From assembly GCA_008080735.1 (NCBI GenBank), contig SHMW01000012.1, forward strand, positions 20,998 to 84,997: a DNA stretch of 64,000 nucleotides, given 5' to 3'. A program made the position numbers and the translations under genes. The notes under the pieces are model-generated. The model ran no database searches and was not told the origin of the DNA. It worked only from the letters and a program-made list of their open reading frames with translations. Position 1 is the first letter of the stretch. The number at the start of each line of letters is the position of its first letter. The DNA comes from Promethearchaeota archaeon. GTDB taxonomy: Archaea > Asgardarchaeota > Lokiarchaeia > Sigyniarchaeales > SOKP01. This document shows positions 27,912-57,042 of this stretch, piece after piece.

Positions 27912-27996
27912 TGCGGGAAGGGAGATTTGAACTCCCGAACCCCTACGGGACTGGATTCTGAGTCCAGCGCCTTTGGCCAAACTTGGCGATTCCCGC
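27912..27996 (-). tRNA. tRNA-Leu(CAG)
   Basis: Acceptor GCGGGAA/TTCCCGC+A, anticodon arm CTGGA-CTCAGAA-TCCAG, long variable arm, GTTCAAATC; no intron, CCA not encoded. Confidence 0.97.
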
Positions 27997-30438: not shown

Positions 30439-31335
30439 TTACTTGATGACGTATTTTAATTTCAGTCCTTCTTCCTCTTCAAGGTCTAACTCTTTTCTGA
30501 TTGCATTTCGAATCAAATATCCTCCCACATGAAGGACAGAATCTCTTAATATCGGATCTTGGTCCATTGAAGCATTACAAGGATATGCATGGTGAGCTGA
30601 GCTAATCATCTCATTTAATGATTTCTTGTTTGCTTTTCCATTAATGAAGTATTTTCCCTTCAATTTTTGAACAATATAATAAGTAGATCCGCAAGGTGCA
30701 CTCCTTATTACACACGCATCCTCAATTGCCTTTCCGCTTTTATCTAATTTAAAAGATATCTTTGGTTTTCCAATCTGAAAATAATTAACAAATTTATTTA
30801 TGTTGTCGTGTTCATGAGTTAGATTAAAACCGGCTTTATTATATTGATCTTCCTCTGTACTGAGCGAGCAGAAAGGCTTAGGAAATGCCGCCTGAATACC
30901 AACCTCTTCAAATGCCTCCAGTACTTGCTTTTGTAATCCTGGAGGAACCCATTTTGGGTCTTCGATTGGCACGATAACACCTTTTATATCTGAATCTTTC
31001 AGTAATTCGGGCAAGCCCGCCAATAAATCTTCATGGATGCCAATTACCAATAAATATTCTAAGGGAGGGAGATCTTTAGGTAGATATTGAACGGGATCAT
31101 CTATAAATTGCGGGAGATTTTGTCCTATTTGTTTATAATAGAAAATATTATTTGAAAAGCTCTCCAGCCCTTTTCTACACTCATCGCATTTTACTTTCTG
31201 TTCTAATTCTTCGCACGCCGTACAAAATTCATCATGGTTGACTAAATGTCCTACAAATTTCTTGGTCAAGTCTAATGTATCTGGATCTGAGCCATATAGA
31301 ACTCCCAATTTATAAAATGCGTTTTCTCTCTTCAT
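30439..31335 (-). CDS. DUF166-family protein
   Basis: IHEDL, PKPFCSL, RSAPCGST, HAYPCNAS. Confidence 0.75.
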   Translation of the reverse strand: MKRENAFYKLGVLYGSDPDTLDLTKKFVGHLVNHDEFCTACEELEQKVKCDECRKGLESFSNNIFYYKQIGQNLPQFIDDPVQYLPKDLPPLEYLLVIGIHEDLLAGLPELLKDSDIKGVIVPIEDPKWVPPGLQKQVLEAFEEVGIQAAFPKPFCSLSTEEDQYNKAGFNLTHEHDNINKFVNYFQIGKPKISFKLDKSGKAIEDACVIRSAPCGSTYYIVQKLKGKYFINGKANKKSLNEMISSAHHAYPCNASMDQDPILRDSVLHVGGYLIRNAIRKELDLEEEEGLKLKYVIK

Positions 31336-31522: not shown

Positions 31523-32362
31523 ATGGACATCGAACATAGATATAAAATGATTTTTTTGAGTCTCCCCGATAAGATTTCTAAAATTGTTGGGGATCTCGAT
31601 ACTATAAAGGTCGAGCGCTTGAATAGTAAGAAGAATCTAGTTTTTGACCTTTCTGTTGAAGATTCTTCAGACACTCTTCAGAAAGACTATATTTTAAAAT
31701 ACTATCGAACTAAAAATGCGGATATAGAATTTACTACTCTTTCACACTTATATAAGCAAGGGCTTGATGTCCCCTCTGTGATCTCTTATGAAAAACCTTT
31801 CCTTTTGCTTGAGAAAATAGATGGAATTAATTTATGCGATTTTATTAATGAACCTCTCCACAAGATAAGTGAAATATCTGAGCTTGAGTCTGAAATGCGC
31901 AAAAAAATTATTAAAAGTATAGATATGCTTGCCAGCTGGCTCACTGACCTTCATAAGCGCAATATTATCACTCATAAAGATTTGGAGAAAACAATCGTAC
32001 TTAACAAGGGAGATACGCGTCTTCGGGATTTTATCATTCAAATGGACAATAAAATGGTCTATGGACTAGATTTTGAGGAAGCGTATGAAGGGAACCATAT
32101 AGATGATCTTGCGTGGATTTGTTGTTCTCTTATTGATACTAAACCCGGTTTATTTGAACTAGACGAGCCATATCATAAAATTGAATTGATGAATGAGTTT
32201 TTAAAACACTATTATAAAATAAATAATGATTTTACATTTTCCTTCAGTTATTTCGCGGAAGCATTGATAAACAACCTGAATATCGTTATTAAGCGACGGG
32301 GGTTAAATGTTGGGAAACTAGATAAAAAACGAATTCTAAACAATATTACAAGCAACTTTTAA
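31523..32362 (+). CDS. atypical protein/small-molecule kinase-like protein (RIO/Bud32/APH-like)
   Basis: ILKYY, E..L, GLDVP, LLLEKIDG, GDTRLRDF, LDFEE, DLA. Confidence 0.75.
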   Translation: MDIEHRYKMIFLSLPDKISKIVGDLDTIKVERLNSKKNLVFDLSVEDSSDTLQKDYILKYYRTKNADIEFTTLSHLYKQGLDVPSVISYEKPFLLLEKIDGINLCDFINEPLHKISEISELESEMRKKIIKSIDMLASWLTDLHKRNIITHKDLEKTIVLNKGDTRLRDFIIQMDNKMVYGLDFEEAYEGNHIDDLAWICCSLIDTKPGLFELDEPYHKIELMNEFLKHYYKINNDFTFSFSYFAEALINNLNIVIKRRGLNVGKLDKKRILNNITSNF

Positions 32363-32508
32363 AGACTTAACCCATGATCTATTTACACAATCATATAATC
32401 CATATCAAAATTTTAAAACTGAACAAATATTTACCTTAAGCACTAAATGTTTTATATCCTCATCACCATAAAATTATTAATATAGAAAATTAACAAGATC
32501 CAAAAAAA

Positions 32509-33264
32509 ATGAGTGGAAATATAACTGATTCAAAAACCGCTATTAAGAAAATTCTCTTATTAGTAGATGAAATAAAAGGTATCAATTCAGATTCGATTCC
32601 CAAACTAACAGACCAACCTAATAAATTATTGGAAACGGTAGAAGCCTTTGAAGCAGAAAAAACGGCCGATTTAAACACGATTGAATCTAACTCCGATGAA
32701 ATTACCTCCTTAAAAAATAAAATAACTCAAAACAAGCGAGACATCGTTAAATTAAATGAAGATATTGACGATCTTAATGCTAAACGTCAAGAATATTTGG
32801 ATAAGATACAACAAGTTCAAAATAAGCTCACAGAAGTTCGTGAAGAAATTAAGAGTAAAACCAATGAATATAATTCGAGGAGCGATCGTTTGAAAGAATT
32901 GGAAGAAACCATCGCAGAACTGAAAATTGAACAAGATAAATTTGATGAAAAAATCGCCAAATTACAAAGTGAGCTCGAAGATACATATCTCAATCGACAA
33001 GCATTCGTAGAGAATTATGAAAACCGAGTGGAGGCAATGAATTTGTTGATTCAGAAGGATTATATTCAATCTGATCAGATTAAGTTGATCAAGGCACTCC
33101 AAAAAGACGCTGCGTTAGAGTTGAAGAATATTCTTGTCGCGATAGATTTACGAGAAGATAAAGCCGATAAAATCTTGAAAAAGATGGTTCAGCAGAATGG
33201 ACCCATTGAATATAATGAGGAAGCTGGAACTGTTAAACTACTAGAGGAGGTGGATTTCAAATGA
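32509..33264 (+). CDS. long coiled-coil protein with C-terminal winged-helix-like domain
   Basis: About 140 aa of heptad pattern, then HTH plus beta-wing IEYNEEAGTVKL. Confidence 0.75.
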   Translation: MSGNITDSKTAIKKILLLVDEIKGINSDSIPKLTDQPNKLLETVEAFEAEKTADLNTIESNSDEITSLKNKITQNKRDIVKLNEDIDDLNAKRQEYLDKIQQVQNKLTEVREEIKSKTNEYNSRSDRLKELEETIAELKIEQDKFDEKIAKLQSELEDTYLNRQAFVENYENRVEAMNLLIQKDYIQSDQIKLIKALQKDAALELKNILVAIDLREDKADKILKKMVQQNGPIEYNEEAGTVKLLEEVDFK

Positions 33265-33998
33265 GTTCTCCTAAAGAAATTCTGAGCTTGATTGAACAAT
33301 TTGAAAACGTCTTTGATACGTATCAACGCTCCTTACAGAAAAATTTTGATGAGATTATCCAGAATGTGAGCAACATCTGGAAGAATATGAAAGCGGAGCA
33401 AGAAGAGGTTGAGAAGTTGGCTGAGACCATTCGTCAACAAAATTCCGAGCTAACTGAATTGAAAACCGAATCAAATGAATTGGATAAACAAATCGGAGAT
33501 TTGAAAGCGAAGAAGGAGGAATTAAATACAAAAATTCTTGACTTAAAAAGTACTTTGGAACGCAATACAAATGAACTTAAAAAGCCTGAATTTGAATTAC
33601 AGACCTTGACCTCAAATTTGAACTCTGTCAATGAGAAAATTCAAGAAAAAGAGCAGCAAAAAGCAGAATTAGATCAAAAGAAACTTGACAATGAACAGAA
33701 GGAAAAAGAACTGAAATCCAGCTACTCCGATGAAAAAATGGAAGAATTGGAGAAAAAACTCGATAGGGTGAAGCAAGAGCATTTCTTCAGCTCATTCTTG
33801 ATTGAAAACTCTGATGAAAATATCCCTGAAGTGGATATCCTTGCTAGTATTATGTCCGAAGGGGGGCAAGCAAATATGGACGACCTCAAAAAGCAACTCG
33901 ACGTACCTCCTATCATGGCCGTTAGAACGATTAAACAGTTAGCGGTAAAGGGGATCATCAATCTGAACGAAGACACGAACCAGATTACAATGGTATAA
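33261..33998 (+). CDS. long coiled-coil protein with C-terminal winged-helix domain
   Basis: ATGA overlap with the previous gene, SD GAGGAGGTGG; DLKKQLDVPPIMAVRTIKQLAVKGIINL. Confidence 0.8.
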   Translation: MSSPKEILSLIEQFENVFDTYQRSLQKNFDEIIQNVSNIWKNMKAEQEEVEKLAETIRQQNSELTELKTESNELDKQIGDLKAKKEELNTKILDLKSTLERNTNELKKPEFELQTLTSNLNSVNEKIQEKEQQKAELDQKKLDNEQKEKELKSSYSDEKMEELEKKLDRVKQEHFFSSFLIENSDENIPEVDILASIMSEGGQANMDDLKKQLDVPPIMAVRTIKQLAVKGIINLNEDTNQITMV

Positions 33999-35770: not shown

Positions 35771-36961
35771 CTATTGAATTCGATCAGCAACAATGTCTTC
35801 AATATTCAATACTTTTATCTCTTTATTCATTTTTTGTATAGCTAAGTTGAGTTGATTCTTACAAAATACACAAGAAGTAGCAATTATTTCTGCTCCTGTT
35901 TTGAGCGCCTCTTTAATACGGATTTTCGCTATTTCTAATGAATCCTCTGGAAAACCTGCTTTAAAACCCCCTCCAGCCCCACAACATATAGCTTCCTGTC
36001 TAGTATGTTCCATTTCTATCAATTTGACGGCAGGGATGGCATTTAAAATCTTCCTTGGTTCATCATAAATTCCCATATGCCGTCCTAAATGACAAGGATC
36101 GTGGTAAGTAATTTTTTTTGGCCATTTTTTAAAATCAATTTCTTTTTTTTTTAATTTATCAACTATAAATTCTGATAAATGAATAAGTTGAAAGGGTAGT
36201 TGTGACTCTGTAAATTTACCCCAATCATTTTTAGCTGTTTTATAGCAACCAGCACAATTAAAAATAATTTTTTTAACTCCCCTTTCCTTAAGAGTATTGA
36301 TGTTTTGTTTGATATAATCTTCCAAGTGAAATTCAATTAACTGATTTTCATAACTAAAAGTTAAATCCACTAATCCAGTTCTCAAATAAGGGCTTCCGCA
36401 ACAATATTCATCTTCCTTTAATAATACAAATCCCTCTTTTAGTATTTTAGATAAAATCTTCGCCGTATTGATAGCGCATTCTTTAGCTCTATAGGATGAT
36501 GTACAGCCTACGAAATATGCATATTTGCCTGAAGATGTAATATTTAACTCCTTATTCATCCATATCATTCTATTTTGCTGTGGTTCTCCATAAGGATTTT
36601 TATTCTCGACTAAATAAGGAATAAATTTATTTTGTTTGTCAATTGTTCTCTTCGCCTTATTAATAATGTCTTTACGTATCTTTTCGAGAATTTCTACATA
36701 ATCTAATTCAATAGGACATATTTCTTCGCATCGTTTACAAGTTGTACAAAAAGCGATCATTTCAATAAAATCTCCCGAAAATTTTAAGCCCTCTTCAATA
36801 AAAGTTCGTAAAATTCTCATTCTCCCACCAGCAAATTTGCTTTCCTTTCTTGAAATTAAATAAGTGGGGCAGACTTCTCTACACATTGAACAATTACTGC
36901 ATAATTTGATATAATCCTCATAATCAGAAATCTTTAGTTTTTTTTTAATCACCATTCTCAA
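35771..36961 (-). CDS. (Fe-S)-binding oxidoreductase subunit (GlcF/HdrD-like, CCG domains)
   Basis: Two CxxCxxCxxxCP motifs, CCG, YHDPCHLGR, CCGAGGG. Confidence 0.92.
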   Translation of the reverse strand: MRMVIKKKLKISDYEDYIKLCSNCSMCREVCPTYLISRKESKFAGGRMRILRTFIEEGLKFSGDFIEMIAFCTTCKRCEEICPIELDYVEILEKIRKDIINKAKRTIDKQNKFIPYLVENKNPYGEPQQNRMIWMNKELNITSSGKYAYFVGCTSSYRAKECAINTAKILSKILKEGFVLLKEDEYCCGSPYLRTGLVDLTFSYENQLIEFHLEDYIKQNINTLKERGVKKIIFNCAGCYKTAKNDWGKFTESQLPFQLIHLSEFIVDKLKKKEIDFKKWPKKITYHDPCHLGRHMGIYDEPRKILNAIPAVKLIEMEHTRQEAICCGAGGGFKAGFPEDSLEIAKIRIKEALKTGAEIIATSCVFCKNQLNLAIQKMNKEIKVLNIEDIVADRIQ

Positions 36962-36985
36962 CCCATAATCTTAATTTAATTCGTT

Positions 36986-38476
36986 TTATTCAACTTTATT
37001 CTCAAATATTGGAAATATTTTTTCCATACCCAGTTTTACAGCCATTTTCCTCCAAAACAAGTTTAATTCAAAAATACTGTTGATACGTCTGTATGAAGTA
37101 AACGAATTTATAAGCTTATTGGGGTTTAAAATATATTGAGGATCATATTGCTTTTTTTGTGTTATTAGTTTTTCTTTCTTTTTTGGCTCGAATTTATCCA
37201 AATAGATGCTATTATATAATCCATAATCATATAATTCACCCAGATTATTTTGATATGCAAATTTTACAATTCGATGCAATATGCCTTTACTTGAAAGGAA
37301 ATGAACTATAAAATCATTATTGGTGAAGGTAAATAAGACTAATCTTACTTCATTTTTGTTCCCTAAAACCCCAATAAAACCTTCATTTAAATTTCTCTGT
37401 TTAGATAATTCTCTGAATCTTGTTAAAATTATTGCTGTATATTTAATTTTGATTAAAAAACTCTGCAACATTAAAACTGGTATATCTTTCTTTAAGCGCA
37501 TCTCATCTTTCAAAATATTTTGCCACATTTCATTGGAGATATCATCTTCAATTGATACTATATCATATTTTTGGTTACTAGATGAGATGATCTTTTGAAT
37601 ATCTTCTCTTAGTCTTTCATTTTCAATTACCAAAAGGCAATAGTACTCAAAATTTGCAGTATCATACAATTTTTGAAAATAATTTCTATCAAAAAAACTA
37701 AGATAATAAATCTCTTCCTTTTCCTTAAATTTCTCAATAAAATCTACTAGATTTGTAAATTCTTTAAATCCATATAATAAAGAAATTTTTTGACGTTTTT
37801 TACTCAATTTAAAAGTGACTTCTATTATGATAGCAAATAATCCATATGTGCCAATAAATACATTAAATTCCTCTGGGCTTTTGAGGTGTTTCAGACCTTC
37901 ACTAGGACTAATAACTTTTAACTCAAGAATGTGTTTTGAAAAACTATTATGCTTTAAAGTACCAATTCCAATTGATCCTTTTGTATTTAGCCACCCACCT
38001 ATTGTAGCAGAAAGAGCGCTAGAAGAAATGGAAGGGATTTCTAAATTTTCTTCGTCTAAATATTCCACTAATTTTCCCAGATTCACACCGGCTTGAGCAG
38101 TAAGAGTATTTCTGTTTTTATTTAATTCAAATTTATTGAGGGTTTTTAAATCTAATACAACATCTCCCATTGAAGGTACACTGGAACCATAATATCCTGT
38201 TCCTCCACCCCTAATCGTAATTGGAACATTATATTGGATTGCTAAATTAACTATTATTTTAATTTGATCTGCACTTTTCGGCCAAATAACTATTCGGGCA
38301 ATGTAATCTTCTTTCCAGCGCCAGTGGTAGAATGGAATACCAGATAAATCTCCGCTGACACTAATACGTTCAATTAATGATTCTGAAAATTCTATTGGAT
38401 TTAAAGATTCTAATTCTTTTTTGAAACTCTTGAAATCAGGTTTTTCAGGTATATATTTTTGTGATTTCTTAAACAA
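36986..38476 (-). CDS. FAD-binding oxidoreductase (GlcD/D-lactate dehydrogenase-like)
   Basis: P..RGGGTG..G, AQAGV, ATIGGW, GTYG..IIEV, DP..ILNP. Confidence 0.88.
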   Translation of the reverse strand: MFKKSQKYIPEKPDFKSFKKELESLNPIEFSESLIERISVSGDLSGIPFYHWRWKEDYIARIVIWPKSADQIKIIVNLAIQYNVPITIRGGGTGYYGSSVPSMGDVVLDLKTLNKFELNKNRNTLTAQAGVNLGKLVEYLDEENLEIPSISSSALSATIGGWLNTKGSIGIGTLKHNSFSKHILELKVISPSEGLKHLKSPEEFNVFIGTYGLFAIIIEVTFKLSKKRQKISLLYGFKEFTNLVDFIEKFKEKEEIYYLSFFDRNYFQKLYDTANFEYYCLLVIENERLREDIQKIISSSNQKYDIVSIEDDISNEMWQNILKDEMRLKKDIPVLMLQSFLIKIKYTAIILTRFRELSKQRNLNEGFIGVLGNKNEVRLVLFTFTNNDFIVHFLSSKGILHRIVKFAYQNNLGELYDYGLYNSIYLDKFEPKKKEKLITQKKQYDPQYILNPNKLINSFTSYRRINSIFELNLFWRKMAVKLGMEKIFPIFENKVE

Positions 38477-39383
38477 GTCCTACACCCCAATAAATAATTC
38501 CAAATATAAAGTTAAATCCCCAAGATCCCAATGCTATATATCCTGAAGGTCTATGTCGTATCCCGCTCAAACCCTTTAATGCGCCATATACACAAGCAAC
38601 AAAACCTACCGAACCCAAAACTATATGAATAAGATGCCATATATCCACGAATAATGTAGTTGTCCAAAATACGATCAAATCAATTGATTCTGGGATAATA
38701 GAAATAAGATTTATAGATGACAGAACTAAAGCAAATGCCGAAAGCCTCCCATGCGTTTTAATATACTTTCTATAATCAATTTCTGATACGATCGTCGCTA
38801 TTGATAAAGAAACTATAGCAATCGCTCCCAAATAGATATTATAATGATCTAACAGAGCGCCAAAAAATCGTGCAATATAATCAAAAATACTTGCTTGATC
38901 AACAATGATATTAAATACGATATAAGCAATATAAGGCTTGCCCGTTCCATCGTGAATCCCTTCAGGACTTCTCACATAAAATAAGATATCATAAATACCC
39001 CTCTGTTTGGGACTCGTTATCGTAAAATTTACGGATATGCTATTTGCTGTGCCATTTCCATCATAAATTGAATTATCTGGTATATAATCCGAGGGATGTG
39101 CAGTAAATTTATTATTATCAACTGAAATACTATTAAATTCTAGAATGGCACCTGTTCCTCCACCTTCCATTTTTATTGTAAAGTTTTGATTCGGATCTAC
39201 GGTTATAGATGTAGCAGATTCTGTTTTAATATGATATTCACCCGAAATATGACAATTATCGTTTGGATCATCATCGGGAGTAGAATATCCTTTTTTTGAA
39301 AATAAAAGTAGTATGAGCAAAATTATTGTTATTGATAAGAAAATTCTCTTTTTTAAGAATGCTTTAGGACACTTATTGTACAT
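38469..39383 (-). CDS. secreted beta-domain + 4-TM His-containing (cytochrome b-like) membrane protein
   Basis: Signal peptide, DNCH, beta-rich ectodomain, TM helices with KTHG, HLIH, RHR. Confidence 0.55.
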   Translation of the reverse strand: MYNKCPKAFLKKRIFLSITIILLILLLFSKKGYSTPDDDPNDNCHISGEYHIKTESATSITVDPNQNFTIKMEGGGTGAILEFNSISVDNNKFTAHPSDYIPDNSIYDGNGTANSISVNFTITSPKQRGIYDILFYVRSPEGIHDGTGKPYIAYIVFNIIVDQASIFDYIARFFGALLDHYNIYLGAIAIVSLSIATIVSEIDYRKYIKTHGRLSAFALVLSSINLISIIPESIDLIVFWTTTLFVDIWHLIHIVLGSVGFVACVYGALKGLSGIRHRPSGYIALGSWGFNFIFGIIYWGVGLV

Positions 39384-39438: not shown

Positions 39439-39462
39439 CCTTATGAATTTGTTAACATAACG
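39439..39462. promoter_or_regulatory. ModE-like palindrome 1 CCTTATG-N10-CATAACG
   Basis: One of four 24-bp copies, upstream of the leftward operon. Confidence 0.7.
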
Positions 39463-39605: not shown

Positions 39606-39629
39606 CATTATGTTCATTTATACATAACA
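39606..39629. promoter_or_regulatory. ModE-like palindrome 2 CATTATG-N10-CATAACA
   Basis: Directly abuts TTTTAAA upstream of 39681. Confidence 0.7.
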
Positions 39630-39680: not shown

Positions 39681-41183
39681 GTGAAAAAAATGGAAACAAA
39701 AGATGGAATTATTGGAGTTTTAATAATTGCCATAGTAGGATTATCAGGTGGCTTAGGATTTATCTTAATAAATCCTCCAACTACCACTACTCCGGGGGGA
39801 CCCGATCAACCGATAGTCTACGATTCAGCACTTCCTGATGATTGGAGTAGTGCACCAAATGCTTCATATTTCACATTTAATAATCAAACGGATAGCGATA
39901 TACAAGTATCACTGGAAGAAATATTAGATGCCGTTAGAAGTCTAGAAGTCAATGGGGAGTACTCTTGGGAAGGGGGAATTGAAGTCAGAACTATAGTGGA
40001 TCCTGATTCTGGAATGTATATTGCCGGAATAGCTATCACAGACCTATTATTTCATCTAAATACGCATTTTCCAGGTGATATAGAGTTCCTTGGTAAAAAA
40101 GATGATTACGGTCAACAAGCTAAATTCACAACTTCGGCAAAGCAAATAATTGAAAAACTTGAAGATGGTGAAGAAGATATTTTAATCGCCATCGCAGTAA
40201 ATAAAGAATGGTTGAGAGATTCTCCTTTATCTGAGTGGGGAGATTTTGCGCTTGTTGGAGAAGGTATGAATACAATTAAGGAATTAGATGAGGTTAATGT
40301 TCTGAACAATTGGACTTTACCTATTAAGGTAGATGGGAATGTGGTTTACGAATTACAACCCCAAAATATAACCAGTTATACAGATACTATTCCATATTAT
40401 GCCTATGATCGGACTGATGATTGGAGCATTAATAGAAGTTATTGGGGAATGAACATATCTCGTATTTGTGATTGGTTAGATCTTAACGAATCTGTTTATT
40501 TTGAACTTAAAGGAAGATCAGCAGATGGTTGGGCAACACCAACAGGTAGGACTGATTATACAGGAGGGCGGAGAGGCTGGAAAACAAGTGAAGTTTATGA
40601 CGGATTAGAATATGATTCGGAATATTGGTCCTATGTAAATGAAACTGATACTTACGATGGGGATCCTTTACCCGCAGAACTTGGGGGTAAACCATTGTTA
40701 CTTGCTTATGCTCACCAACTTCATGGGGAGATTGATACCCAATCTGGAGATACGAACCCACCTTGGCCTGCTAGAAAAAAGCTTGGGATGTTAAGTGGTC
40801 CATATAAAGTTTTTGCAGGGGGTCAAGATAGAGGCGCTCAAGTTAAATATATTTCCTCTATCGAAATCTATACAGTATTAGCCTATTGGGACTCAAACGT
40901 CACCTTTGTAGGAAGTGGTAAAGATGCAACTCCAACCTTAAATGTATCGGACTCAATACAGTTTAACTGGACGGGCAGTGCAGTATTTAATTCAACATTA
41001 GACTTTCAATGGTGGTTCAATTCTTCAAGTACTTCATATAACTCAACTGAGAAGCATCCTGTAATTACTTTTGATACACCTGGTACATATACTATCACCT
41101 TGACGGTTTTTGATGCCCTTGGTAATAAAAATACCCAAAAAACAGGATACTGGGATAGATTCGTTGTAGAAGACAATACCTGA
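39681..41183 (+). CDS. membrane-anchored surface protein with two sulfite-oxidase-like (Oxidored_molyb-like) domains and a C-terminal PKD domain
   Basis: N-term TM; YWGMNI..RSADGW..LLLAY..GPYKV..VKYISSIEI and a degenerate first copy; PKD WWF..HP..FDTPGTYTITLTV; start may be ATG at 39690. Confidence 0.65.
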   Translation: MKKMETKDGIIGVLIIAIVGLSGGLGFILINPPTTTTPGGPDQPIVYDSALPDDWSSAPNASYFTFNNQTDSDIQVSLEEILDAVRSLEVNGEYSWEGGIEVRTIVDPDSGMYIAGIAITDLLFHLNTHFPGDIEFLGKKDDYGQQAKFTTSAKQIIEKLEDGEEDILIAIAVNKEWLRDSPLSEWGDFALVGEGMNTIKELDEVNVLNNWTLPIKVDGNVVYELQPQNITSYTDTIPYYAYDRTDDWSINRSYWGMNISRICDWLDLNESVYFELKGRSADGWATPTGRTDYTGGRRGWKTSEVYDGLEYDSEYWSYVNETDTYDGDPLPAELGGKPLLLAYAHQLHGEIDTQSGDTNPPWPARKKLGMLSGPYKVFAGGQDRGAQVKYISSIEIYTVLAYWDSNVTFVGSGKDATPTLNVSDSIQFNWTGSAVFNSTLDFQWWFNSSSTSYNSTEKHPVITFDTPGTYTITLTVFDALGNKNTQKTGYWDRFVVEDNT

Positions 41184-41296
41184 TGAGGCAATTATTTTAA
41201 AAATACCTAAAAACAATATCTATTAATATTTTTTTTTAGCTTTTGTTCATTATTAAAAAATTAATCATATGATAGAGAAAAAAACCCTTTAAAAAA

Positions 41297-42181
41297 ATGG
41301 AAAAAAAAGAATTCATTAGATATATCTCCTTGTTTCTTTTAGGCTTATTCTTTATTCTCTCGGTAGTTGAAACATCATATGCATATTATGGTGAAGGGGA
41401 TTGCGCACATGAACATGAAATTGTTTATATCGATGTTCCCCTCGATTCAGATGCTAATATTATTTTGGATGGAAATCCCACTGAAAATTTTTGGAAGAAA
41501 GAATCAAATCAAAAGGGAAATATGCTTATTAAATTATCCGAAAGGAAGATAGGAACAGAAATTCCCGAGATTCATAACTTAAATATCACCTTTATAATGA
41601 ATGATAATTACATATATATTTTATGTATATGGGAAGATTCTACTCCGGAATTTGAGGATGGTAATTTCAAGGATGGATTGGCCTTTTGTTGGAATATCAA
41701 TGCTCCAAATTTTTCCGCTTATTATGCACAGAATGATATGAATACAGCTAATATGGGTGGAGGGAGAGTTGATGCGTGGAGATGGAATTATGATGATCTG
41801 AATAGTCGAGGAGAGGTTCATTACGTATTAGATGACTGTTTTGATGATGAGGGATGGATTAGTCCTAGTGAGCCTGGAAGAGATATAAAAGCAGCTTATA
41901 ATTATTCTGAGACAGATAAGTCATATTATTTAGAAATTGAGCGAAAACTCATTACGGGAGAGATCTTTGATGTACAGTTTGGCGACAAAAAAGCATATAA
42001 GTTTAATTTAGCTCTTTTCAACGATAATCAATACGAAGATCATGCAATTTCATGGACCTATGCCTTAGATTTAGGTGAAGATAATCTAATTTCTGGCTTC
42101 TTTATTACTTTAATAGCAAGTTCAATGATAGTAGTTCTTATAATAATCTCAATTTATATAATTAGACAAAAAATAGATTAA
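41297..42181 (+). CDS. secreted DOMON-like (ethylbenzene dehydrogenase heme-b subunit-like) protein with C-terminal anchor
   Basis: LDG...W, YIYILCIWED, DGLAFCW, M..G..DAWRW, YLEIERKL, distal His; ISGF+TM tail. Confidence 0.65.
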   Translation: MEKKEFIRYISLFLLGLFFILSVVETSYAYYGEGDCAHEHEIVYIDVPLDSDANIILDGNPTENFWKKESNQKGNMLIKLSERKIGTEIPEIHNLNITFIMNDNYIYILCIWEDSTPEFEDGNFKDGLAFCWNINAPNFSAYYAQNDMNTANMGGGRVDAWRWNYDDLNSRGEVHYVLDDCFDDEGWISPSEPGRDIKAAYNYSETDKSYYLEIERKLITGEIFDVQFGDKKAYKFNLALFNDNQYEDHAISWTYALDLGEDNLISGFFITLIASSMIVVLIIISIYIIRQKID

Positions 42182-42188
42182 ATCAGAA

Positions 42189-42740
42189 ATGGAAACGAGA
42201 AATTTTTATATTTTAGTTGCCTCGATTGCTGTGGGTCTTGCATCTTTTTGGCTTACGATATATGCAATTGTTACTTTAGATGTTGATATATTCCAAGACC
42301 CAAATACAATACAAATAAAAGGGAATGGAATCAATGGAGAAATTACATTATCAGTAAACGAATTATCATCCGATCCCTATCAGCAAGTTAAAGATAAAAC
42401 TTTTACAATTAAGAATAAATATGAAAGAGTCTATTATAATACATTTACGGGAGTTTCGTTATGGAGTATAATAGAGCAGAATCAACATCTTTTACTTAAA
42501 GATCCCTCTGAACTGACATTTTTATTTAAAGCAAGAGATGCCTATCAATCACCAAAACCGTTAAATTTATCGATCGCACAAAATAATCCTACATTGGTCA
42601 TCCTAGCATATTTAGAGGATGGATATCCTCTATTCGAAGATGGACCCATTAGAGCTATAATAGACCAATCTGTAGTTCCCGAAGATGAATATTCTTCTCA
42701 ATACACTGTAAAATATATGGCTTCAGTAATCATCGAATAA
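42189..42740 (+). CDS. membrane-anchored sulfite-oxidase-fold (Oxidored_molyb-like) protein
   Basis: FTGVSLWSII, F.ARDAY, ILAY.EDG.PL..DGPIR, VKYMASV; no Cys in the protein. Confidence 0.75.
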   Translation: METRNFYILVASIAVGLASFWLTIYAIVTLDVDIFQDPNTIQIKGNGINGEITLSVNELSSDPYQQVKDKTFTIKNKYERVYYNTFTGVSLWSIIEQNQHLLLKDPSELTFLFKARDAYQSPKPLNLSIAQNNPTLVILAYLEDGYPLFEDGPIRAIIDQSVVPEDEYSSQYTVKYMASVIIE

Positions 42741-42770
42741 ACTAAATCAATTTTTATGTAATAAAAAAAC

Positions 42771-43400
42771 TTGATGATGGATATGAGTGAAGAGCAGAAA
42801 TTTATAAAAAACAAAAACGGGATGTACAAAGAAACTGGTTTTTCAACGAATCTAAGAAAACTTACAAATTTAGATTTACTCTACTCAACAATAATTGGTG
42901 TTATGGGAGGTATAATATCCAGTCTCATTCCATTCAGTCTGTTAATAAAGGTTTGGTATCCTTTAACGGGTGGGACGCAATTAATCAGCGGACACCATGT
43001 CATTTGGGCATCAATCATATACGGTCTTACAAAAAAAAAAACTAATATTATGATTACTATGCTCTCGAAAGGACTTCTAGAATTTTTATTTGGGGATGTT
43101 TGGGGATTATTGATTATTTTTGTGAATCTAATGGAAGGATTTTTCCTAGCACTCGGATTTTTTTTGATGGAAAGATTAGGAGAGGGTGAAACTAAATTAG
43201 GTTGGGGGATTGCTGGAGGTTTTGGAAATTTCTTCCAAGCACCATTTTTTTGGATCATCAATCAAAGATGGTTTTTACATTGGAGCCTATGGATTCTTTC
43301 CTTTATATTTGCCTTCATTTCAGGTATTCTCATAGTTGGTGTCTTGGGAAGAGCGGTTAAGAATACCTTAATAAAAGCAGGCGTTCCAACAACATTTTAG
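42771..43400 (+). CDS. ECF transporter S component (YkoE-like)
   Basis: About 6 TM, GLLEFLFG..WG, KAGV tail; directly upstream of ECF A and T. Confidence 0.8.
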   Translation: MMMDMSEEQKFIKNKNGMYKETGFSTNLRKLTNLDLLYSTIIGVMGGIISSLIPFSLLIKVWYPLTGGTQLISGHHVIWASIIYGLTKKKTNIMITMLSKGLLEFLFGDVWGLLIIFVNLMEGFFLALGFFLMERLGEGETKLGWGIAGGFGNFFQAPFFWIINQRWFLHWSLWILSFIFAFISGILIVGVLGRAVKNTLIKAGVPTTF

Positions 43401-43403
43401 CGG

Positions 43404-45200
43404 GTGGAGATATCAATCTCAGACTCAAATATTTCTCTTTTTTTTGATAAATTTTCCTTTATTTACGGAAAAGATAGGTCCCAGAAGCCAGCAGTTTCCA
43501 ATATATCATTCAATTTAAAAGAAGGGGAGGTTTTGATTTTAGCGGGGTCGAGCGGAAGTGGAAAATCCACTATATCATTTGCGATGAATGGGATGATCCC
43601 GTGGAGAATTAAAGGATTTGCCAAGGGAGATGTGCAAGTATTTGGAAAAAGTATCTGGGATTATGATTTTATGGAATTAAGCAAAACGGTTGGATTAGTG
43701 AAGCAAAATCCATTAGAACAGCTAGTAACTTTCACCGTAAAAGACGAGATCGCGTTTGGACTTGAAAATCTTAAATACCCAGAAGGAGAAATTGAAGATC
43801 GAATTAAGAATATCGCAGAATTTATGGGGATTTCGCATCTTTTAGACCGAGATATAGACCAGTTGAGCGGTGGTCAAAAGCAACTTACGATCCTAAGCTC
43901 GTTTTTAGTAATGGATCCAAAAATCTTAATCCTTGACGAGCCGATTGCGTTTTTAGACCAGAATTCGGAAAGTCTCTTATTAGACAGGTTGAAAAAATTA
44001 GTTGAATCGAAATATCATAACCTTACACTCGTTATAATTGAACATAGACTGTCCCGAGTGATAGATATCGCTGATAAAATTATCATTTTGAGAGATGACG
44101 GAAAAATTGCGTTGATGGGGGATGTAAATAAGGTATTAAGAGAAAATTTTAACCAATTGAGAAATTGTAATGTCCGTGTTCCATGGTTATATAATATTTT
44201 CGACCATTATGGAAATAGAGCTCATCCAGCGTCTTTTACGGAGGCTCTCAAATTAATTGAGACATTAAATAAAAATCAGCTGCACAAACTCAAACAGATT
44301 CTTATTGACAATGAGATAAAGCCAATCCATCTTAATAAATTCAGTGATTTTGATGAGATTATTGAATTTGAGAATCTCTACATTGAAAGTCTTAAAGATC
44401 AAATATCTGAGCAAGACAACGGACAAAATGGAAAACCCAAAGAGGAGAGAATAATCCTAGAGACGAAAAATCTAAGTTTCGAATATCCAAATACAGACAT
44501 AAAGGCAATTCAAAATCTTACGATAAAAATTAAAGACGGAGATTTTATCGGATTAATTGGTCCAAATGGTTCGGGCAAAACGACTTTGCTCTACTTACTT
44601 GCGGGATTATATGAGCCCGTTTTTGGTGAGATATTCTATAAAGACCAAAATATTAGCGACTTGGATCAATATGAATATGCGAAAAAAATTGGATTCATTT
44701 TTCAGAATCCCGAGAGCATGATCTTCAAGAGCACGATAAAAGATGAGCTCTTATACGGTCCGCGGAATTTTAATATTGAAGACCAGATCAAAGATGATTA
44801 TTTATTTAAACTGGTTAATTTAATTGGAAATGAAAGTCCAGATAAAAATCCTTCCAATTTAAGCTGGGGGCAAAAGCGCAGATTGAACTTAAGTTCTGTG
44901 TTTATTTACAATCCCGATATAATATTATTAGACGAGCCCTTCATCGGACAAGACCAAAAAACCATCGAGGAATTGATTGAGACGTTATTTATTGAAAACA
45001 AACGCGGAAAGACGATTATCATCTCTTCACATGATTATCATTTACTCCTAAAATATACTAAGAAGATTATGGAGCTGAATGAGGATGGTACATTGAGGGA
45101 TTACGACTTGAACGGTAATTATTTCACGCGACACCAGAATTTAGGCCCTATTCTATTATTAGATAAAATTAATCAGCAATTAAGCCAAAAGGACGGATAA
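43404..45200 (+). CDS. ECF transporter fused double ATPase (A-A')
   Basis: GSSGSGKST / GPNGSGKTT, QNP, LSGGQKQ / LSWGQKRR, LDEP twice. Confidence 0.93.
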   Translation: MEISISDSNISLFFDKFSFIYGKDRSQKPAVSNISFNLKEGEVLILAGSSGSGKSTISFAMNGMIPWRIKGFAKGDVQVFGKSIWDYDFMELSKTVGLVKQNPLEQLVTFTVKDEIAFGLENLKYPEGEIEDRIKNIAEFMGISHLLDRDIDQLSGGQKQLTILSSFLVMDPKILILDEPIAFLDQNSESLLLDRLKKLVESKYHNLTLVIIEHRLSRVIDIADKIIILRDDGKIALMGDVNKVLRENFNQLRNCNVRVPWLYNIFDHYGNRAHPASFTEALKLIETLNKNQLHKLKQILIDNEIKPIHLNKFSDFDEIIEFENLYIESLKDQISEQDNGQNGKPKEERIILETKNLSFEYPNTDIKAIQNLTIKIKDGDFIGLIGPNGSGKTTLLYLLAGLYEPVFGEIFYKDQNISDLDQYEYAKKIGFIFQNPESMIFKSTIKDELLYGPRNFNIEDQIKDDYLFKLVNLIGNESPDKNPSNLSWGQKRRLNLSSVFIYNPDIILLDEPFIGQDQKTIEELIETLFIENKRGKTIIISSHDYHLLLKYTKKIMELNEDGTLRDYDLNGNYFTRHQNLGPILLLDKINQQLSQKDG

Positions 45201-45204
45201 TCCA

Positions 45205-46080
45205 ATGCCAAAAAAGAACGAATTTTTAGATAACAAAACCTACACTTTTACCTACTATCCTGGGGACTCACTTCTTCATAAATTAAATCCATTATCCAAA
45301 TTAGTGTTTTTGCTACTTCTCACAATCTTGATCTTTTTTATTAGAAGCTTAATTCTTTTCGCAGTAATAACTTTATCCATAATCTTAATCGCGTTAGCCA
45401 GTGGAATCTCACTGCGAAATTTAGCGAAAAAATTACGCTTCATTATAATTGTAATGATCTTTAGCGTTTTTCTAAATATATTTTTCAACGCCATACCTCA
45501 AGAACAAGAGCAGGTGCTCTTTTATCTATTTGGCGTGCAATTTTTACCGATTCGACGATTGGCGGTATATTATGCGATGAAAGCATTTTTGATCGTCATC
45601 ACGCTTTTTACATCCTCTATAATTTATACAAACACCACATTAATGAAAGATTTTGCTTATTCTCTCATGAGTTTGAACATTCCATATAAATTTAGTTTTG
45701 ATTTTATGGTGGGAATACGCTACCTCCCATTAATCGAAAAGGAGGCAAAAACAATTGCTCTGGCACAAAAAGCGAGAGGTTTTGGTCGCGAAAAGGTGAA
45801 TTCAATCAAAAAAGCCTATAACTTTGTCATGGAACGATTAATTTCTACTTTAGTCTCTATTCTTCGAAAAGGACATATTACTTCAATTTCCATGGAAAAT
45901 CGTTGTTTCGGTATCTATAAAACCCGTACAAACCTCACGAAAGTCCCATTTAAAAAAAAGGATTATGGATTTATTATTTTCTGTATTTTATTATTTAGTT
46001 TTATATCTCTCTATATCTTTAGGATTATTCCTTTACCAACTTTCCCTTCATTATATAATATTTTTAAAAATTTATTCTAA
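45205..46080 (+). CDS. ECF transporter T component
   Basis: S.LHKLNPLSKL, RYLP, AQKARG, SMENRCF. Confidence 0.93.
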   Translation: MPKKNEFLDNKTYTFTYYPGDSLLHKLNPLSKLVFLLLLTILIFFIRSLILFAVITLSIILIALASGISLRNLAKKLRFIIIVMIFSVFLNIFFNAIPQEQEQVLFYLFGVQFLPIRRLAVYYAMKAFLIVITLFTSSIIYTNTTLMKDFAYSLMSLNIPYKFSFDFMVGIRYLPLIEKEAKTIALAQKARGFGREKVNSIKKAYNFVMERLISTLVSILRKGHITSISMENRCFGIYKTRTNLTKVPFKKKDYGFIIFCILLFSFISLYIFRIIPLPTFPSLYNIFKNLF

Positions 46081-46152: not shown

Positions 46153-46176
46153 CGTTATGTTTATAAGTACATATCA
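46153..46176. promoter_or_regulatory. ModE-like palindrome 3 CGTTATG-N10-CATATCA
   Basis: Upstream of tupA; spacer contains TATA-like TTTATAAG. Confidence 0.72.
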
Positions 46177-49304: not shown

Positions 49305-49328
49305 CGATATGTTTTTAGTAGTATATCG
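49305..49328. promoter_or_regulatory. ModE-like palindrome 4 CGATATG-N10-TATATCG
   Basis: Lies between TTTTAAA (49284-49290) and the moaC start. Confidence 0.72.
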
Positions 49329-51532: not shown

Positions 51533-52783
51533 ATAGAACGTTTAAGGCGATTCAAGATTAAATTTTTAAAAACTATTTCTGTGGATAAATTTAGAACTCT
51601 TCTAAAAGAATTACCTGCATTAGAATTGGGAGTCGAACAGCTTGATTTAGAACAGAGCTTTAACAGAAAGATAGCAGAAGATATCAAAAGCCCAATTGAT
51701 GTGCCGCATTTTCGTAAATCTCGTATGGATGGGTTTGCGGTACGAGCACAAGATACATTCGGGGCGGAAGAGGATAATTTGATTCCACTCACGCAAGTTG
51801 AGGTTATTGAAGCGGGTGATATCCCACAAAAATCGCTAAAAGAAGGACAATGCGCATATGTCGCTACTGGTGCTGCAATTCCCGAAGGGGCGGATGCAGT
51901 GGTTATGGTGGAATATTCCGAAAAGAAAGATGACAAAATTCTCATATCGAAAGCAGTCACCCCTACAACTCATATAGTAGAGATTGGACACGATGTGAAT
52001 AGGGGAGATATAATAATAGAAAAGAACACTCTAATTGACCTTCCTACGATGGGGATTCTCGCGGCATGTGGAATTACGACTGTCCCGGTATACCAAAAAC
52101 CGAAAATAAGCTTAATGAGTACTGGGAGCGAACTTGTGACTCATAAAGTTTCAGAATTAGAGGTTGGACAGATCTACGACATCAATTCAATTGTGTTAAA
52201 ACAAGCGATATCAAATACAGGTTCGGAAGTAGATTACCTTGGAATTGTGAAGGATCATTTTGAGGAATTGAAGCATAGAATCGATCAAGGTCTCAAAGAA
52301 AACGATATTGTGATTTTATCTGGCGGGACTTCAAAGGGTGAAGGTGATTTAGGCGTACGAGTGTTAGATACTTTCGAAAATATCGAAGTTCAAGTACACG
52401 GAATCAAGATTAAGCCTGGGAAACCGCTAATTTTTGCAAAACTCGAAAAGAAAATTATTTTCATCCTTCCGGGATATCCAACCTCCGCCTTAAGTTGTTT
52501 CTATGTGTTCATTGATGATTTTTTACGTCGATTGTCGGGATATCCACTAAGAGCTAAAAATGCAGAAGAATTAGAACTCGGGGAACGGATTTACAGCCCT
52601 ATAGGGAGATATCATTTTAAGGCGGTCGAGTTGAGGGATGTTGACGGCGTGCGGAAGATCTTCCCTATCAAAACGGGCTCAGAAGCCATCAGCACCTTGT
52701 TCTATTCGGATGGCTACATTGAAATTGAAGAATTAGAAGAAATAGTAGAAAAAGGAGACAAAAAAGTCTTTTATACATATTAA
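51533..52783 (+). CDS. moeA: molybdopterin molybdo/tungstotransferase (copy 1); probable ATA start at 51533 (track start 51581)
   Basis: SRMDGFAV, TGAAIPEGADAV, SGGTSKG, KPGKP, LPGYP. Confidence 0.93.
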   Translation: MERLRRFKIKFLKTISVDKFRTLLKELPALELGVEQLDLEQSFNRKIAEDIKSPIDVPHFRKSRMDGFAVRAQDTFGAEEDNLIPLTQVEVIEAGDIPQKSLKEGQCAYVATGAAIPEGADAVVMVEYSEKKDDKILISKAVTPTTHIVEIGHDVNRGDIIIEKNTLIDLPTMGILAACGITTVPVYQKPKISLMSTGSELVTHKVSELEVGQIYDINSIVLKQAISNTGSEVDYLGIVKDHFEELKHRIDQGLKENDIVILSGGTSKGEGDLGVRVLDTFENIEVQVHGIKIKPGKPLIFAKLEKKIIFILPGYPTSALSCFYVFIDDFLRRLSGYPLRAKNAEELELGERIYSPIGRYHFKAVELRDVDGVRKIFPIKTGSEAISTLFYSDGYIEIEELEEIVEKGDKKVFYTY

Positions 52784-55045: not shown

Positions 55046-55924
55046 GTGGGAAATATGGTCAAATCTGTTGAAGCCATTAAGGAAATACAAGAAAAATTTT
55101 CAATCATCGGAAGAGAAGATGAATTAAAAAAGATTATTCTGGCACATTCTATCGGCAAAAATATCTTGATTGAGGGTGAAGTTGGTGTTGGTAAGACCAC
55201 GCTTGCGCGTGGAGTTGCGTCTTATTTTGATGCTGATTTTTACCGTATCGATTGTAGTGAAGATACGTTAACTCATAACCTCGTCGGCTATTGGGACCCT
55301 CCGTTAGTAATTTCAAAGGGATATGTCGAGGATTCCTATCGATATGGACCTTTAGCTTCTGCCATGCTCGATGGAGGCTGTCTTTTTATCAATGAAATTA
55401 ATCGGATGCCAGAGATTACTCAAAATGCACTTCTGACTGCATTAGATGAGAAGATTTTGAAAATTCCGAAACTTAAAACCATTCATGCCTCGAAGGATTT
55501 CTTCACCATCGCGACCCTAAATCCATCAGCTCATATCGGAGTCACGGTTTTGGGAGAAGCTATAAAGGACAGATTCGTCTGGATTAAGTTGGATTATCAG
55601 AAACCTGAAGAAGAGCGACAAATCATTATTCAGGAAGCGGAATTAAATAGCGGAAATGCGGATGATTTGGCGATGCTGTCTCAAAGGATTATTCACCAAA
55701 CCCGAAATAATACCTCTATTCGCAGAGGCAGTTCCATTCGTGGTGGGATCGATTTAGCGGCGATCATGAATCAGCATGATGATATCAAGAGCTCTAAGAA
55801 CTGGGTTGAGGCGGCGATCATGGCGTTATATAATAAAATAGAGCTCGAGGATGGCATCTCACGGACTAAACCAGAGGTAATCTCTGAAATTGTTCTGGCA
55901 GTGCTAAACAATTCGGATTTTTAA
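55046..55924 (+). CDS. MoxR-family AAA+ ATPase
   Basis: GEVGVGKT, FINEINR, QNALL, ATLNP, DRF, SIRG. Confidence 0.92.
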   Translation: MGNMVKSVEAIKEIQEKFSIIGREDELKKIILAHSIGKNILIEGEVGVGKTTLARGVASYFDADFYRIDCSEDTLTHNLVGYWDPPLVISKGYVEDSYRYGPLASAMLDGGCLFINEINRMPEITQNALLTALDEKILKIPKLKTIHASKDFFTIATLNPSAHIGVTVLGEAIKDRFVWIKLDYQKPEEERQIIIQEAELNSGNADDLAMLSQRIIHQTRNNTSIRRGSSIRGGIDLAAIMNQHDDIKSSKNWVEAAIMALYNKIELEDGISRTKPEVISEIVLAVLNNSDF

Positions 55925-55967
55925 TAATCGATGATTTCTCTGAGGTCGACACCGAGGAGGAGGAGAA
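55915..55967 (+). other. candidate -1 programmed frameshift signal (G_GAU_UUU_UAA plus downstream structure)
   Basis: Slippery run at the MoxR stop; the -1 frame is open into the VWA gene. Confidence 0.55.
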
Positions 55968-55995
55968 GGCTAAGCGCTTACAAGTCAAAAAAACA

Positions 55996-57042
55996 ATGGT
56001 TCCAACCGATAAGGAGATTTTAAAATATGAAATAATCAAAAAAAAGAAGAAAAAACCCGATTATTACGAGCATATGGCCCACAGTCTTGATTACAAAGAA
56101 ATAAAAGATCTAACCTATTTAGCTATTGAACATAAAAACTTAGAAGCGATCCGCGGGATGCTTAAATCCAATGTATATGCCGCAACCGATGCATTAGACT
56201 GTCGGGAAGGTGTGGAATTTTTTTCAGAAAAAGCAGAAGAGGCGCCCGAGGTTATGCCTGAGATCTACTTTTTTATCCGGCGTCCTATTTCTGAAAAATA
56301 TAAACGGATTTTTCGCCGTTTAGCCCGACAGAGTATTCTTCGCACGTCCCTTAAAATCACAAGTCGGGGATTACGTGGATATAAAAAGAAAACAGTGCCA
56401 TATTACCATTTAGGAATGGCTGATTTCGATTTAGATGAAACCATACAGCACAATCCGCTAAAGATTCGTGAAAAAACGCTTAATTATCAAGATATTTACG
56501 GAATAAAGCGACAGAGAGAAAAAAGAAAAGTGGCTTTAGTGCTCGATACGAGCGGAAGTATGTATGGCAGACTTCTCCTTAATGCTGCTCTTACTACTTC
56601 TGTTCTTGCATACAATATGGAAAAAGAAGATTTCTCAATTATCCTATTTAATTCGACTGCAATGGTCTTGAAGGATATGAAAGAGGAAAAAGAAGTGGAG
56701 AAGATTGTCGATGAGATACTGGATTCAGAGGCAGTTGGGTTTACAAATATTCACATAGGCCTTGATAAAGGGCTCAAACAATTACAAAAAGTGAAGCGAA
56801 AAGCTAAAAATCAGTTCGGGATATTGATTTCGGACGGAAATTATAACAGAGGCGAAAATCCCATAAAGCTTGCCAGAAAATTTCCTAAACTCCACGTGAT
56901 TGGAATGCCCCCTGATAACGATGCGGATAGAGGAATTGAGATGTGTAAAGAGATCGCGAAAGCGGGAGGCGGAAAGTTCTATGCGGTTAATGATTTCAAA
57001 GAAATCCCTCGCGCTTTAATTGAACTTCTTTCTCAAACGTGA
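55996..57042 (+). CDS. VWA-domain protein (CoxE/ChlD-C-like); frame is open upstream to 55888
   Basis: MIDAS DTSGSM, TNI..GL, ISDG. Confidence 0.92.
   Translation: MVPTDKEILKYEIIKKKKKKPDYYEHMAHSLDYKEIKDLTYLAIEHKNLEAIRGMLKSNVYAATDALDCREGVEFFSEKAEEAPEVMPEIYFFIRRPISEKYKRIFRRLARQSILRTSLKITSRGLRGYKKKTVPYYHLGMADFDLDETIQHNPLKIREKTLNYQDIYGIKRQREKRKVALVLDTSGSMYGRLLLNAALTTSVLAYNMEKEDFSIILFNSTAMVLKDMKEEKEVEKIVDEILDSEAVGFTNIHIGLDKGLKQLQKVKRKAKNQFGILISDGNYNRGENPIKLARKFPKLHVIGMPPDNDADRGIEMCKEIAKAGGGKFYAVNDFKEIPRALIELLSQT

Follow-up and report, generated by a model that had tools for sequence, protein, structure and literature searches.

A six-gene cassette in a 64,000-nucleotide stretch of a Lokiarchaeial genome (contig SHMW01000012.1; the whole stretch is called the window here) joins parts that are known from quite different systems. 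The closest described importer is YkoEDC of Bacillus subtilis (5EDL; PMC5037267), a group I energy-coupling factor (ECF) transporter for thiamine: an operon encodes S, fused A-A' and T components, and the S component, of family PF09819, contacts thiamine through Trp49, Glu77 and Gln95. PruR (Atu3496; 7kos/7kou, 7kom, 7kp2, 7rkb; PMC11194511) is an exported, stand-alone sulfite-oxidase fold without the molybdenum-ligating Cys; Tyr104 sandwiches a pterin, Asn102 hydrogen-bonds it and a truncated hairpin excludes the molybdenum cofactor (Moco). MsrP/YedY (1xdq), SorA (2blf), SorT and SoxC are the enzymes of this fold. EbdC and NxrC (PF09459; 7b04_C) are haem b DOMON proteins, encoded with a DMSO-reductase catalytic subunit. 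Finally, ModE of Methanosarcina acetivorans binds RTTATGT-N8-RCATAAY before Mo/W transport and metalloenzyme genes (PMC12327845). We propose, at a probability of about 0.7, that the cassette encodes a group I ECF importer of a metal-loaded pyranopterin, likely the tungsten cofactor (Wco), Moco or a metal-molybdopterin (MPT) form, served by PruR-like capture domains on the cell surface.

The locus

The features that matter here are as follows (window coordinates; sites were scored with the operator matrix described below).

39439..39462: second, weaker ModE-type palindrome, between the cassette and the divergent gene 38469-39383; 13.8 bits
39606..39629: ModE-type cassette operator, perfect RTTATGT-N8-RCATAAY (motif 39607-39628), 52 nt before the start codon; 20.7 bits
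39681..41183, + strand: membrane-anchored surface protein of 500 aa, two sulfite-oxidase/PruR-fold domains without the ligand Cys, plus a PKD domain
41297..42181, + strand: signal/transmembrane (TM)-anchored DOMON protein (EB_dh, EbdC/NxrC-like), 294 aa; PF09459, E 1e-10
42189..42740, + strand: single Cys-less sulfite-oxidase/PruR-fold domain on an N-terminal TM, 183 aa
42771..43400, + strand: ECF S component, YkoE-like, 209 aa; PF09819, E 2.7e-7; 5edl, E 0.076
43404..45200, + strand: fused ECF ATPases A-A', 598 aa; TIGR04521, E 7e-99; TIGR04520, E 1e-93
45205..46080, + strand: ECF T component (CbiQ), 291 aa; PF02361, E 5e-23
46153..46176: ModE-type operator of tupABC; 23.5 bits
46215..49142, + strand: tupABC tungstate ABC transporter; NF041772, E 9e-52
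49305..49328: weak ModE-type operator before moaC, conserved there in relatives; 12.0 bits
49352..54618, + strand: moaC-moaA-moaD-moaE-moeA-moaB-moeA, de novo pyranopterin synthesis and metal insertion

The six open reading frames (ORFs) of the cassette follow one another at gaps of 113, 7, 30, 3 and 4 nt, so that the last five (41297-46080) are linked by only 3-30 nt; a 134 nt leader with an operator separates the end of the T-component gene from tupA. An earlier reading of the window, made from the letters alone (below, the sequence-only reading), had seen a co-directional run of two anchored proteins, a DOMON-like protein and a complete ECF importer directly before tupABC and moaCADE-moeA-moaB-moeA. 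The genes, their strand, their order and the family assignments of the DOMON protein and of S, A-A' and T were all recovered. The source is an 85 kb contig in a metagenome-assembled genome (MAG) of 4.1 Mb, 93% complete and 7% contaminated, and GC content is even across the cassette locus; the names of homologues point to Lokiarchaeia/Promethearchaeota as the source.

Distribution of the cassette and of cofactor synthesis

The strongest evidence for cofactor import is the complementary distribution of cassette and cofactor synthesis. Cassette presence was scored as S plus a sulfite-oxidase-fold match in 61 genomes, 51 of them at least 80% complete; weak S matches in G011, G014, G039 and G041, and the S of G045, were left out of the count, as the short loci read showed no sulfite-oxidase-fold gene beside them. 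The cassette was found in 29 genomes, a MoaC or MoeA family match in 33, and aldehyde:ferredoxin oxidoreductase (AOR), a user of the cofactor, in 60; MoeA and MoaC are absent from 22 of the 29 cassette genomes. Among the 51 more complete genomes, 21 hold the cassette only, 23 MoaC/MoeA only, five both and two neither, and both of these last hold cassette genes at contig ends. Cassette and TupA occur together only in the window's genome (1/61). A phylum-wide sample of 151 genomes gave, with the queries used, S-like matches in 56, MoeA in 67, both in three and neither in about 31. In at least eight genera (g2, g3, g5, g11, g14, g39, g53, g58) some members have the cassette and others the synthesis genes; the pattern therefore does not trace to one event.

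The alternation can be followed at a single chromosomal site. In family f1 this slot is bounded by a coiled-coil gene pair and by MoxR-vWA, and it carries operator-tupABC-moa, operator-cassette, cassette-moa, the cassette with a moaD-moaB remnant or, in the window, everything; that is, tup-moa occupies the cassette's place in relatives without it. Such a pattern would be expected where one nutrient is either salvaged or made. The sequence-only reading had looked for a tie between the S component and moa/tup, naming association of S orthologues with thiamine or cobalamin genes as the contrary outcome. Run as a check, this showed S following Mo/W regulation and moa loss instead. The link to tup and moa stands for regulation and distribution; as adjacency it is exceptional, and mutual exclusion is the informative pattern.

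Three single-contig genomes (G044, G050, G055) carry the cassette, 6-7 AOR_C matches and PF00384 enzymes; MoaA_C, MoaC, MoaE, MoeA, TupA, WtpA and SBP_bac_11 gave no match in them, while controls were detected. The best AORs of these three are full length. The best AORs of eight moa-less genomes, tested at residues that contact pterin, W or the iron-sulfur (Fe-S) cluster, keep R76, N93, R182, E313, D343, H448 and the four Fe-S Cys, in the numbering of P. furiosus. As loss of pterin synthesis goes with loss of the metal insertase and of the oxyanion importers, the cargo should hold both pterin and metal. The earlier reading had allowed 'cofactor or precursor': the metal-loaded cofactor is favoured, and a precursor such as cyclic pyranopterin monophosphate (cPMP) or MPT, like free metal, fits worse because MoeA has gone together with MoaA/C/E.

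Four loci (L068, L077, L094, L100) in genomes without a MoaC or MoeA match carry moaD and a degenerate moaB after the T gene, and some of these add a canonical-looking, Cys-bearing PF00174 membrane protein. The moaD-moaB genes behind the cassette may be remnants, or may have a role in maturing the imported cofactor.

The surface proteins

Pfam/NCBIfam and phmmer against the Protein Data Bank (PDB) do not recognise the window's own sulfite-oxidase-fold domains; homologues, profiles and structure were needed. The AlphaFold2 (AF2) model of the 42189 protein (pLDDT 91), which has one N-terminal TM and no Cys, matches exclusively PruR, sulfite oxidases and MsrP at E<=0.001 in Foldseek (7kom, E 3.4e-7). 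Superposition with VIA gives Z 15.3 to SorA, with a root-mean-square deviation (rmsd) of 2.1 Å over 129 residues, and Z 13-14 to PruR; the next unrelated fold stands at Z 5.0. For the enzymes MsrP, SorA, SorT and SoxC as a group the range is Z 11-15 and rmsd 2.1-2.5 Å. A weak PF00174 match (E<=0.1) appears in 42 of 61 homologues, and a broader profile of the domain family finds PruR 7kom as its best PDB match (E 3.6e-11) and SorA at 1e-9.

The 39681 protein is acidic, with a TM at 10-28, 14 N-x-S/T sequons, a single Cys263 and two domains, at about 57-210 and 208-400. Profile-profile comparison with the 42189 family matches domain 1 at 96% (E 1.5e-9) and domain 2 at 97% (E 4.3e-11). Domain 1 (residues 57-210) also superposes on PruR at Z 10.3-10.5 and rmsd 2.3-2.5 Å; its direct hhalign against the canonical enzymes gave no match. 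The whole chain models poorly (AF2 pLDDT 54, Foldseek TM-score <0.25); domain 2, with pLDDT <50, is unmodelled, and its assignment comes from the profile match. A PKD domain at 419-488, present also in a few homologues, had gone unremarked. The three Oxidored_molyb-like domains proposed from the letters thus have the sulfite-oxidase fold, domain 2 of 39681 by profile alone.

What these domains lack is the ligand. Cys146 of MsrP aligns with Arg244 of 39681 and, in 42189, with Ile74 to Asn76, an uncertainty of two residues in the register; the sequence-only reading had placed no Cys at this position, and none is there. Among 61 close homologues of 42189, column 76 is N in 46, T in 14 and K in one, never Cys; across the family, a Cys lies within three positions of the ligand place in only 11 of 359 domains. 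Cys263 of 39681 lies in the helix after it and is Ile in 4/16 homologues. Yet the pterin-contacting positions are conserved: the equivalents of PruR Asn102 and Tyr104 are Asp117 (61/61) and Tyr119 (59/61), aligned with the N-D-Y motif of 7kom. Compared with PruR, the hairpin has about five extra residues; it is no shorter than that of MsrP, and the G-P-x-R motif of the enzymes is present. The pocket would thus still be sized for a pyranopterin and incapable of the catalytic Mo-Cys bond. Two of the Foldseek matches, 3hbg and 3hbq, are Cys-to-Ser/Ala mutants of sulfite oxidase, which are inactive yet retain the cofactor.

Neither protein has a twin-arginine motif before its N-terminal TM. Since both are anchored by a single TM, and 39681 is acidic and rich in sequons, they are probably exported unfolded and could be loaded only outside the cell.

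Among characterised proteins PruR is the nearest relative of these ectodomains, but they fall outside PruR proper. The PW motif of the truncated hairpin and the c-di-GMP enzyme (DcpA-type) or kinase partner are absent; Asn or Thr (or Arg) replaces the Cys; several domains and a membrane anchor characterise the proteins, whose partner is an importer in a Mo/W regulon. Unlike MsrP and SorA, they have no ligating Cys, Tat signal, dimerisation domain, MsrQ or cytochrome c partner.

Relatives of the domain occur in larger settings as well. Many proteins of 900-2600 aa carry repeats of it. In the clostridial genome CP020559 (L126:5266-16225) an operon of homologous domains lies behind tandem Moco/Wco riboswitches; it encodes S-layer proteins with up to eight Cys-less repeats (2250 aa) and an FMN_bind fusion, and a third riboswitch precedes moeA. 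These riboswitches are independent regulatory evidence for the Cys-less family.

The DOMON protein

The 41297 protein, which has a C-terminal TM, is probably a b-type haem protein. Its Met-Gly...D-x-W-x-W motif aligns with NxrC (7b04_C) and includes Met153, kept in 36 of 44 sequences; the second candidate ligand, His249, is invariant (44/44), as are Cys131 and a D-C-x3-H motif that EbdC and NxrC lack. It differs from them further in being membrane-tethered, optional and encoded without a DMSO-reductase catalytic subunit. As about seven Lokiarchaeia cassettes, and all 13 loci read in other Asgard families, do without the gene, the protein is accessory and dispensable; a role as redox helper is plausible.

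The ECF module

Two ECF-type ATPase domains and a CbiQ/EcfT-type T component in one dedicated operon make up the group I layout, and the gene order is kept in nearly all complete cassettes. The S clade, whose tree broadly tracks host families, has invariant polar residues K60, Q70, E122, N153 and Q156, with H75/H76 in 30/31. Aligned, weakly, with YkoE (E 0.076), it has His76 in place of the thiamine-contacting Trp49 (30/31) and Glu122 in place of Gln95 (31/31); Glu77 is kept in 23/31. Also unlike YkoEDC, the cassette has tethered or S-fused extracellular domains, a ModE-type DNA operator instead of a THI riboswitch, no thi context and a moa-complementary distribution. No thiamine pyrophosphate (TPP) riboswitch was found in the window or in 18 loci, and Rfam gave no riboswitch of any kind in the window or the archaeal loci. 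By sequence comparison the system looks like a group I ECF vitamin importer whose capture domains would be PruR-like; it falls outside YkoE, MsrP/SorA and PruR proper.

That the surface domains work with S is argued most directly by fusion. Of 13 distant Asgard loci, 12 encode S as a fusion with a sulfite-oxidase-fold domain; one extra TM, with basic residues before it, links the two, and further sulfite-oxidase-fold genes and A-A'/T stand alongside. Complex prediction for S with 42189 lends weak support and carries little weight beside the fusions. It scored 0.50 against 0.00 for the best control, with one of three runs at 0.00; the runs share at least 78% of contacts at a partner pLDDT of at least 78. 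The mark was cleared by 58 of 80 solved pairs and by 2 of 110 that were mismatched; of these, just seven solved pairs and both mismatches scored 0.60 or less.

Variants of the module include a single 850-875 aa protein joining A-A' and T in family f2 (L046-L049). A stand-alone second S paralogue, 64-68% identical (L136:3504-4130; G000:C49:25503-26129), is divergent from fwdD-fwdB and sits under its genome's best operator; in G022, fwdDB lies inside a duplicated cassette.

Regulation

The operator shared with tup and moa, already claimed by the sequence-only reading, lies far above chance. The site at 39608-39627 is the sole perfect TTATGT-N8-ACATAA core in the 4.1 Mb genome, and it conforms to the M. 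acetivorans ModE consensus. When a matrix is built solely from the sites that precede tupA/wtpA/moaC in 13 relatives, its top four sites in the window are 46153, 39606, 39439 and 49305. With it an operator is found before 32 of 36 cassettes, against 0.2 (maximum 2) for shuffles and 5/1200 for control ORFs. The top sites genome-wide precede the second S paralogue by fwdD-fwdB, tupA, five AORs, an Fe-alcohol dehydrogenase and mvhD.

Unlike the M. acetivorans protein, the candidate regulator is a bare helix-turn-helix (HTH) protein. The window's genome encodes one of 120 aa (TIGR00637, E 9e-12, below the cut-off), and such a gene flanks the cassette in G057. No Mop domain was detected in it, although no separate search for a Mop-bearing regulator was made. 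In the ModE-like winged-helix proteins of 120-127 aa (L051:1474-1836, - strand; L045:242-625, - strand) no Mop domain was detected. The strong operators before the Fe-alcohol dehydrogenase and mvhD (L137:537-1946; L138:2121-2609) suggest that the regulon includes partners of AOR.

Proposed mechanism and alternatives

The scheme proposed for import of a metal-loaded cofactor, a salvage route in place of tungstate uptake and de novo synthesis, is this. A ModE-type repressor site joins the cassette to tup, moa and AOR genes, as the operator statistics show; expression would then be expected when Mo or W is short. The TM-anchored, Sec-type ectodomains, without the ligating Cys, would bind cofactor reversibly outside the cell, the sulfite-oxidase pterin pocket shielding its oxygen-labile dithiolene. 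The domain beside S would pass the cofactor on to S, as the S-domain fusions and, faintly, the complex prediction suggest. By the established ECF mechanism, ATP hydrolysis by A-A' would, through T, topple S; the cofactor would be released into the cell and loaded into apo-AORs and enzymes of the Fwd/Fdh type. Most speculatively, the haem-DOMON protein, where present, may keep the cofactor in a usable redox state. The window's genome would be facultative, both making and scavenging. Capture outside the cell by catalytically dead Moco-fold proteins, with hand-over to the ECF, is in essence what the sequence-only reading had put forward; fold, regulation and moa exclusion now argue for it.

Several facts weigh against this scheme. 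Free Moco and Wco are labile. Five to seven genomes retain both cassette and synthesis. G005 (92% complete, 10 contigs) has cassette and moa with no TupA, WtpA or ModA-like match, which suits metal import, and G003 is probably similar (cassette and moa, no oxyanion-binding protein matched); imported cofactor could also supply the metal in these two. With the queries used, about 31 of the 151 phylum-wide genomes gave neither an S-like nor a MoeA match. The Fisher P values for complementarity (1e-7; 5e-15) are overstated, as the genomes are mostly MAGs and related. No ECF gene lies within 7 kb of the clostridial riboswitch locus. PruR, the nearest protein with a known function, acts as a partner in signalling, and the pterins that it binds are small and not Moco (PMC11194511).

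Genomes such as G005 and, probably, G003 invite the alternative that the cassette imports tungstate or molybdate, free or chelated, in place of TupABC/WtpABC, the ectodomains binding oxyanion or a pterin metallophore. It would account for the near-exclusion of cassette and TupA, which meet only in the window's genome of 61; oxyanion transporters are typically under ModE-type control, Lys and His are conserved in S, and Ni/Co importers are found among group I ECFs. We nevertheless judge it unlikely: for the 22 of 29 cassette genomes without MoeA and MoaC there is no known route from free metal to cofactor, the pterin-contacting residues are conserved, and a separate oxyanion ABC system stands beside the cassette in G000, G004 and G022. 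Import of a metal-free precursor or breakdown product (cPMP, MPT, oxidised forms) or of a simple pterin, finished inside by unrecognised enzymes, seems improbable as well. The closed cassette-only genomes have no MoaE, MoeA or oxyanion-binding protein; the loci that keep moaD and a MoaB-like gene behind the cassette, which would speak for a precursor, lie in genomes likewise without a MoeA or MoaC match; and the hairpin is not shortened as in PruR, whose binding of metal-free pterins is the other argument for such a cargo, along with the stability of cPMP, far greater than that of Moco.

Two further alternatives were weighed. The sequence-only reading had named an extracellular MsrPQ-like redox module, in which enzymes of the sulfite-oxidase fold are coupled to the haem-DOMON protein, and the ECF, although in the same operon, imports a vitamin unconnected with them. 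Met and His are indeed kept in the DOMON protein, and the upstream region is shared with a divergent FAD/Fe-S/His-bearing membrane operon; but ligand Cys (in the 61 close homologues and nearly all the 359 domains), Tat signal, which MsrP has, and MsrQ are all missing, several cassettes, and the other Asgard loci checked, have no DOMON gene, loci elsewhere join S and a sulfite-oxidase-fold domain in one protein, the divergent operon does not adjoin the cassette in relatives, and canonical Cys-bearing PF00174 proteins are encoded separately in the same genomes. We regard such a module as very unlikely. Hardly any credence attaches to S as an ordinary importer of thiamine, its hydroxymethylpyrimidine moiety (HMP; the YkoE role) or another B vitamin, with historical Mo/W links: YkoE shares family PF09819 and is the sole PDB sequence match, and Glu77 is mostly kept, but the thiamine-stacking Trp49 is His, Gln95 is Glu and the TPP riboswitch is absent, while the ModE-type operator, the moa exclusion and the second S under the strongest operator by fwdDB would be left unexplained.

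Implications

The prevailing view is that prokaryotes make Moco and Wco in-house. A literature search, with most subscription journals outside it, found no ECF or other prokaryotic importer for either. For 310 prokaryotes with molybdoenzymes and no complete pathway, unknown biosynthetic parts or Mo-independent enzymes were proposed, not uptake (PMC6147048), and a survey of Asgard transporters does not mention ECF (PMC7997004). We lean towards a broader view, in which uptake of intact Wco/Moco is widespread in prokaryotes and many Asgard archaea, probably cultured Lokiarchaeia among them, are auxotrophs fed by neighbours. If import is right, the pyranopterin cofactor would resemble B12 as a 'vitamin' shared between organisms, and the orphan molybdoproteins would be explained in part; a concrete importer candidate makes cofactor cross-feeding directly testable. 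For ECF transporters this would mean a new class of substrate and a layer of tethered capture domains; for the Cys-less sulfite-oxidase fold it would mean a second role, next to signalling by PruR. A nutritional dependence is predicted for slow-growing, syntrophic Asgard archaea, which bears on their culturing. Stable cofactor-binding domains could also serve as Moco carriers.

Neighbouring genes and other observations

A divergent three-gene run at 35771-39383 (- strand) encodes a 304-aa protein, a GlcD-like FAD oxidoreductase and a GlcF-like CCG/Fe-S protein. The 304-aa protein, without a family match, has an exported domain and His-bearing C-terminal TMs; the operator at 39439 lies 56 nt from the start of its divergent gene, 38469-39383. 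The run was considered as part of the cassette and dropped, being inserted here and not adjoining the cassette in relatives.

Repeat, sigma-70 promoter and terminator scans gave results at chance level. The upstream edge of the Mo/W slot in many Lokiarchaeia consists of a kinase-like gene and two coupled coiled-coil/winged-helix genes (window 31523-33998); its downstream edge is MoxR-vWA (55046-57042). A tRNA gene lies at 27912-27996 (- strand). A DUF166-family gene (30439-31335, - strand) is often near the cassette and occurs also in Thorarchaeota-type loci (L123, L130). The first moeA (51533-52783) apparently starts upstream of its first ATG/GTG/TTG, and the A-A' ORF of several relatives also has no standard start before Walker A; together these suggest non-canonical starts in the lineage.

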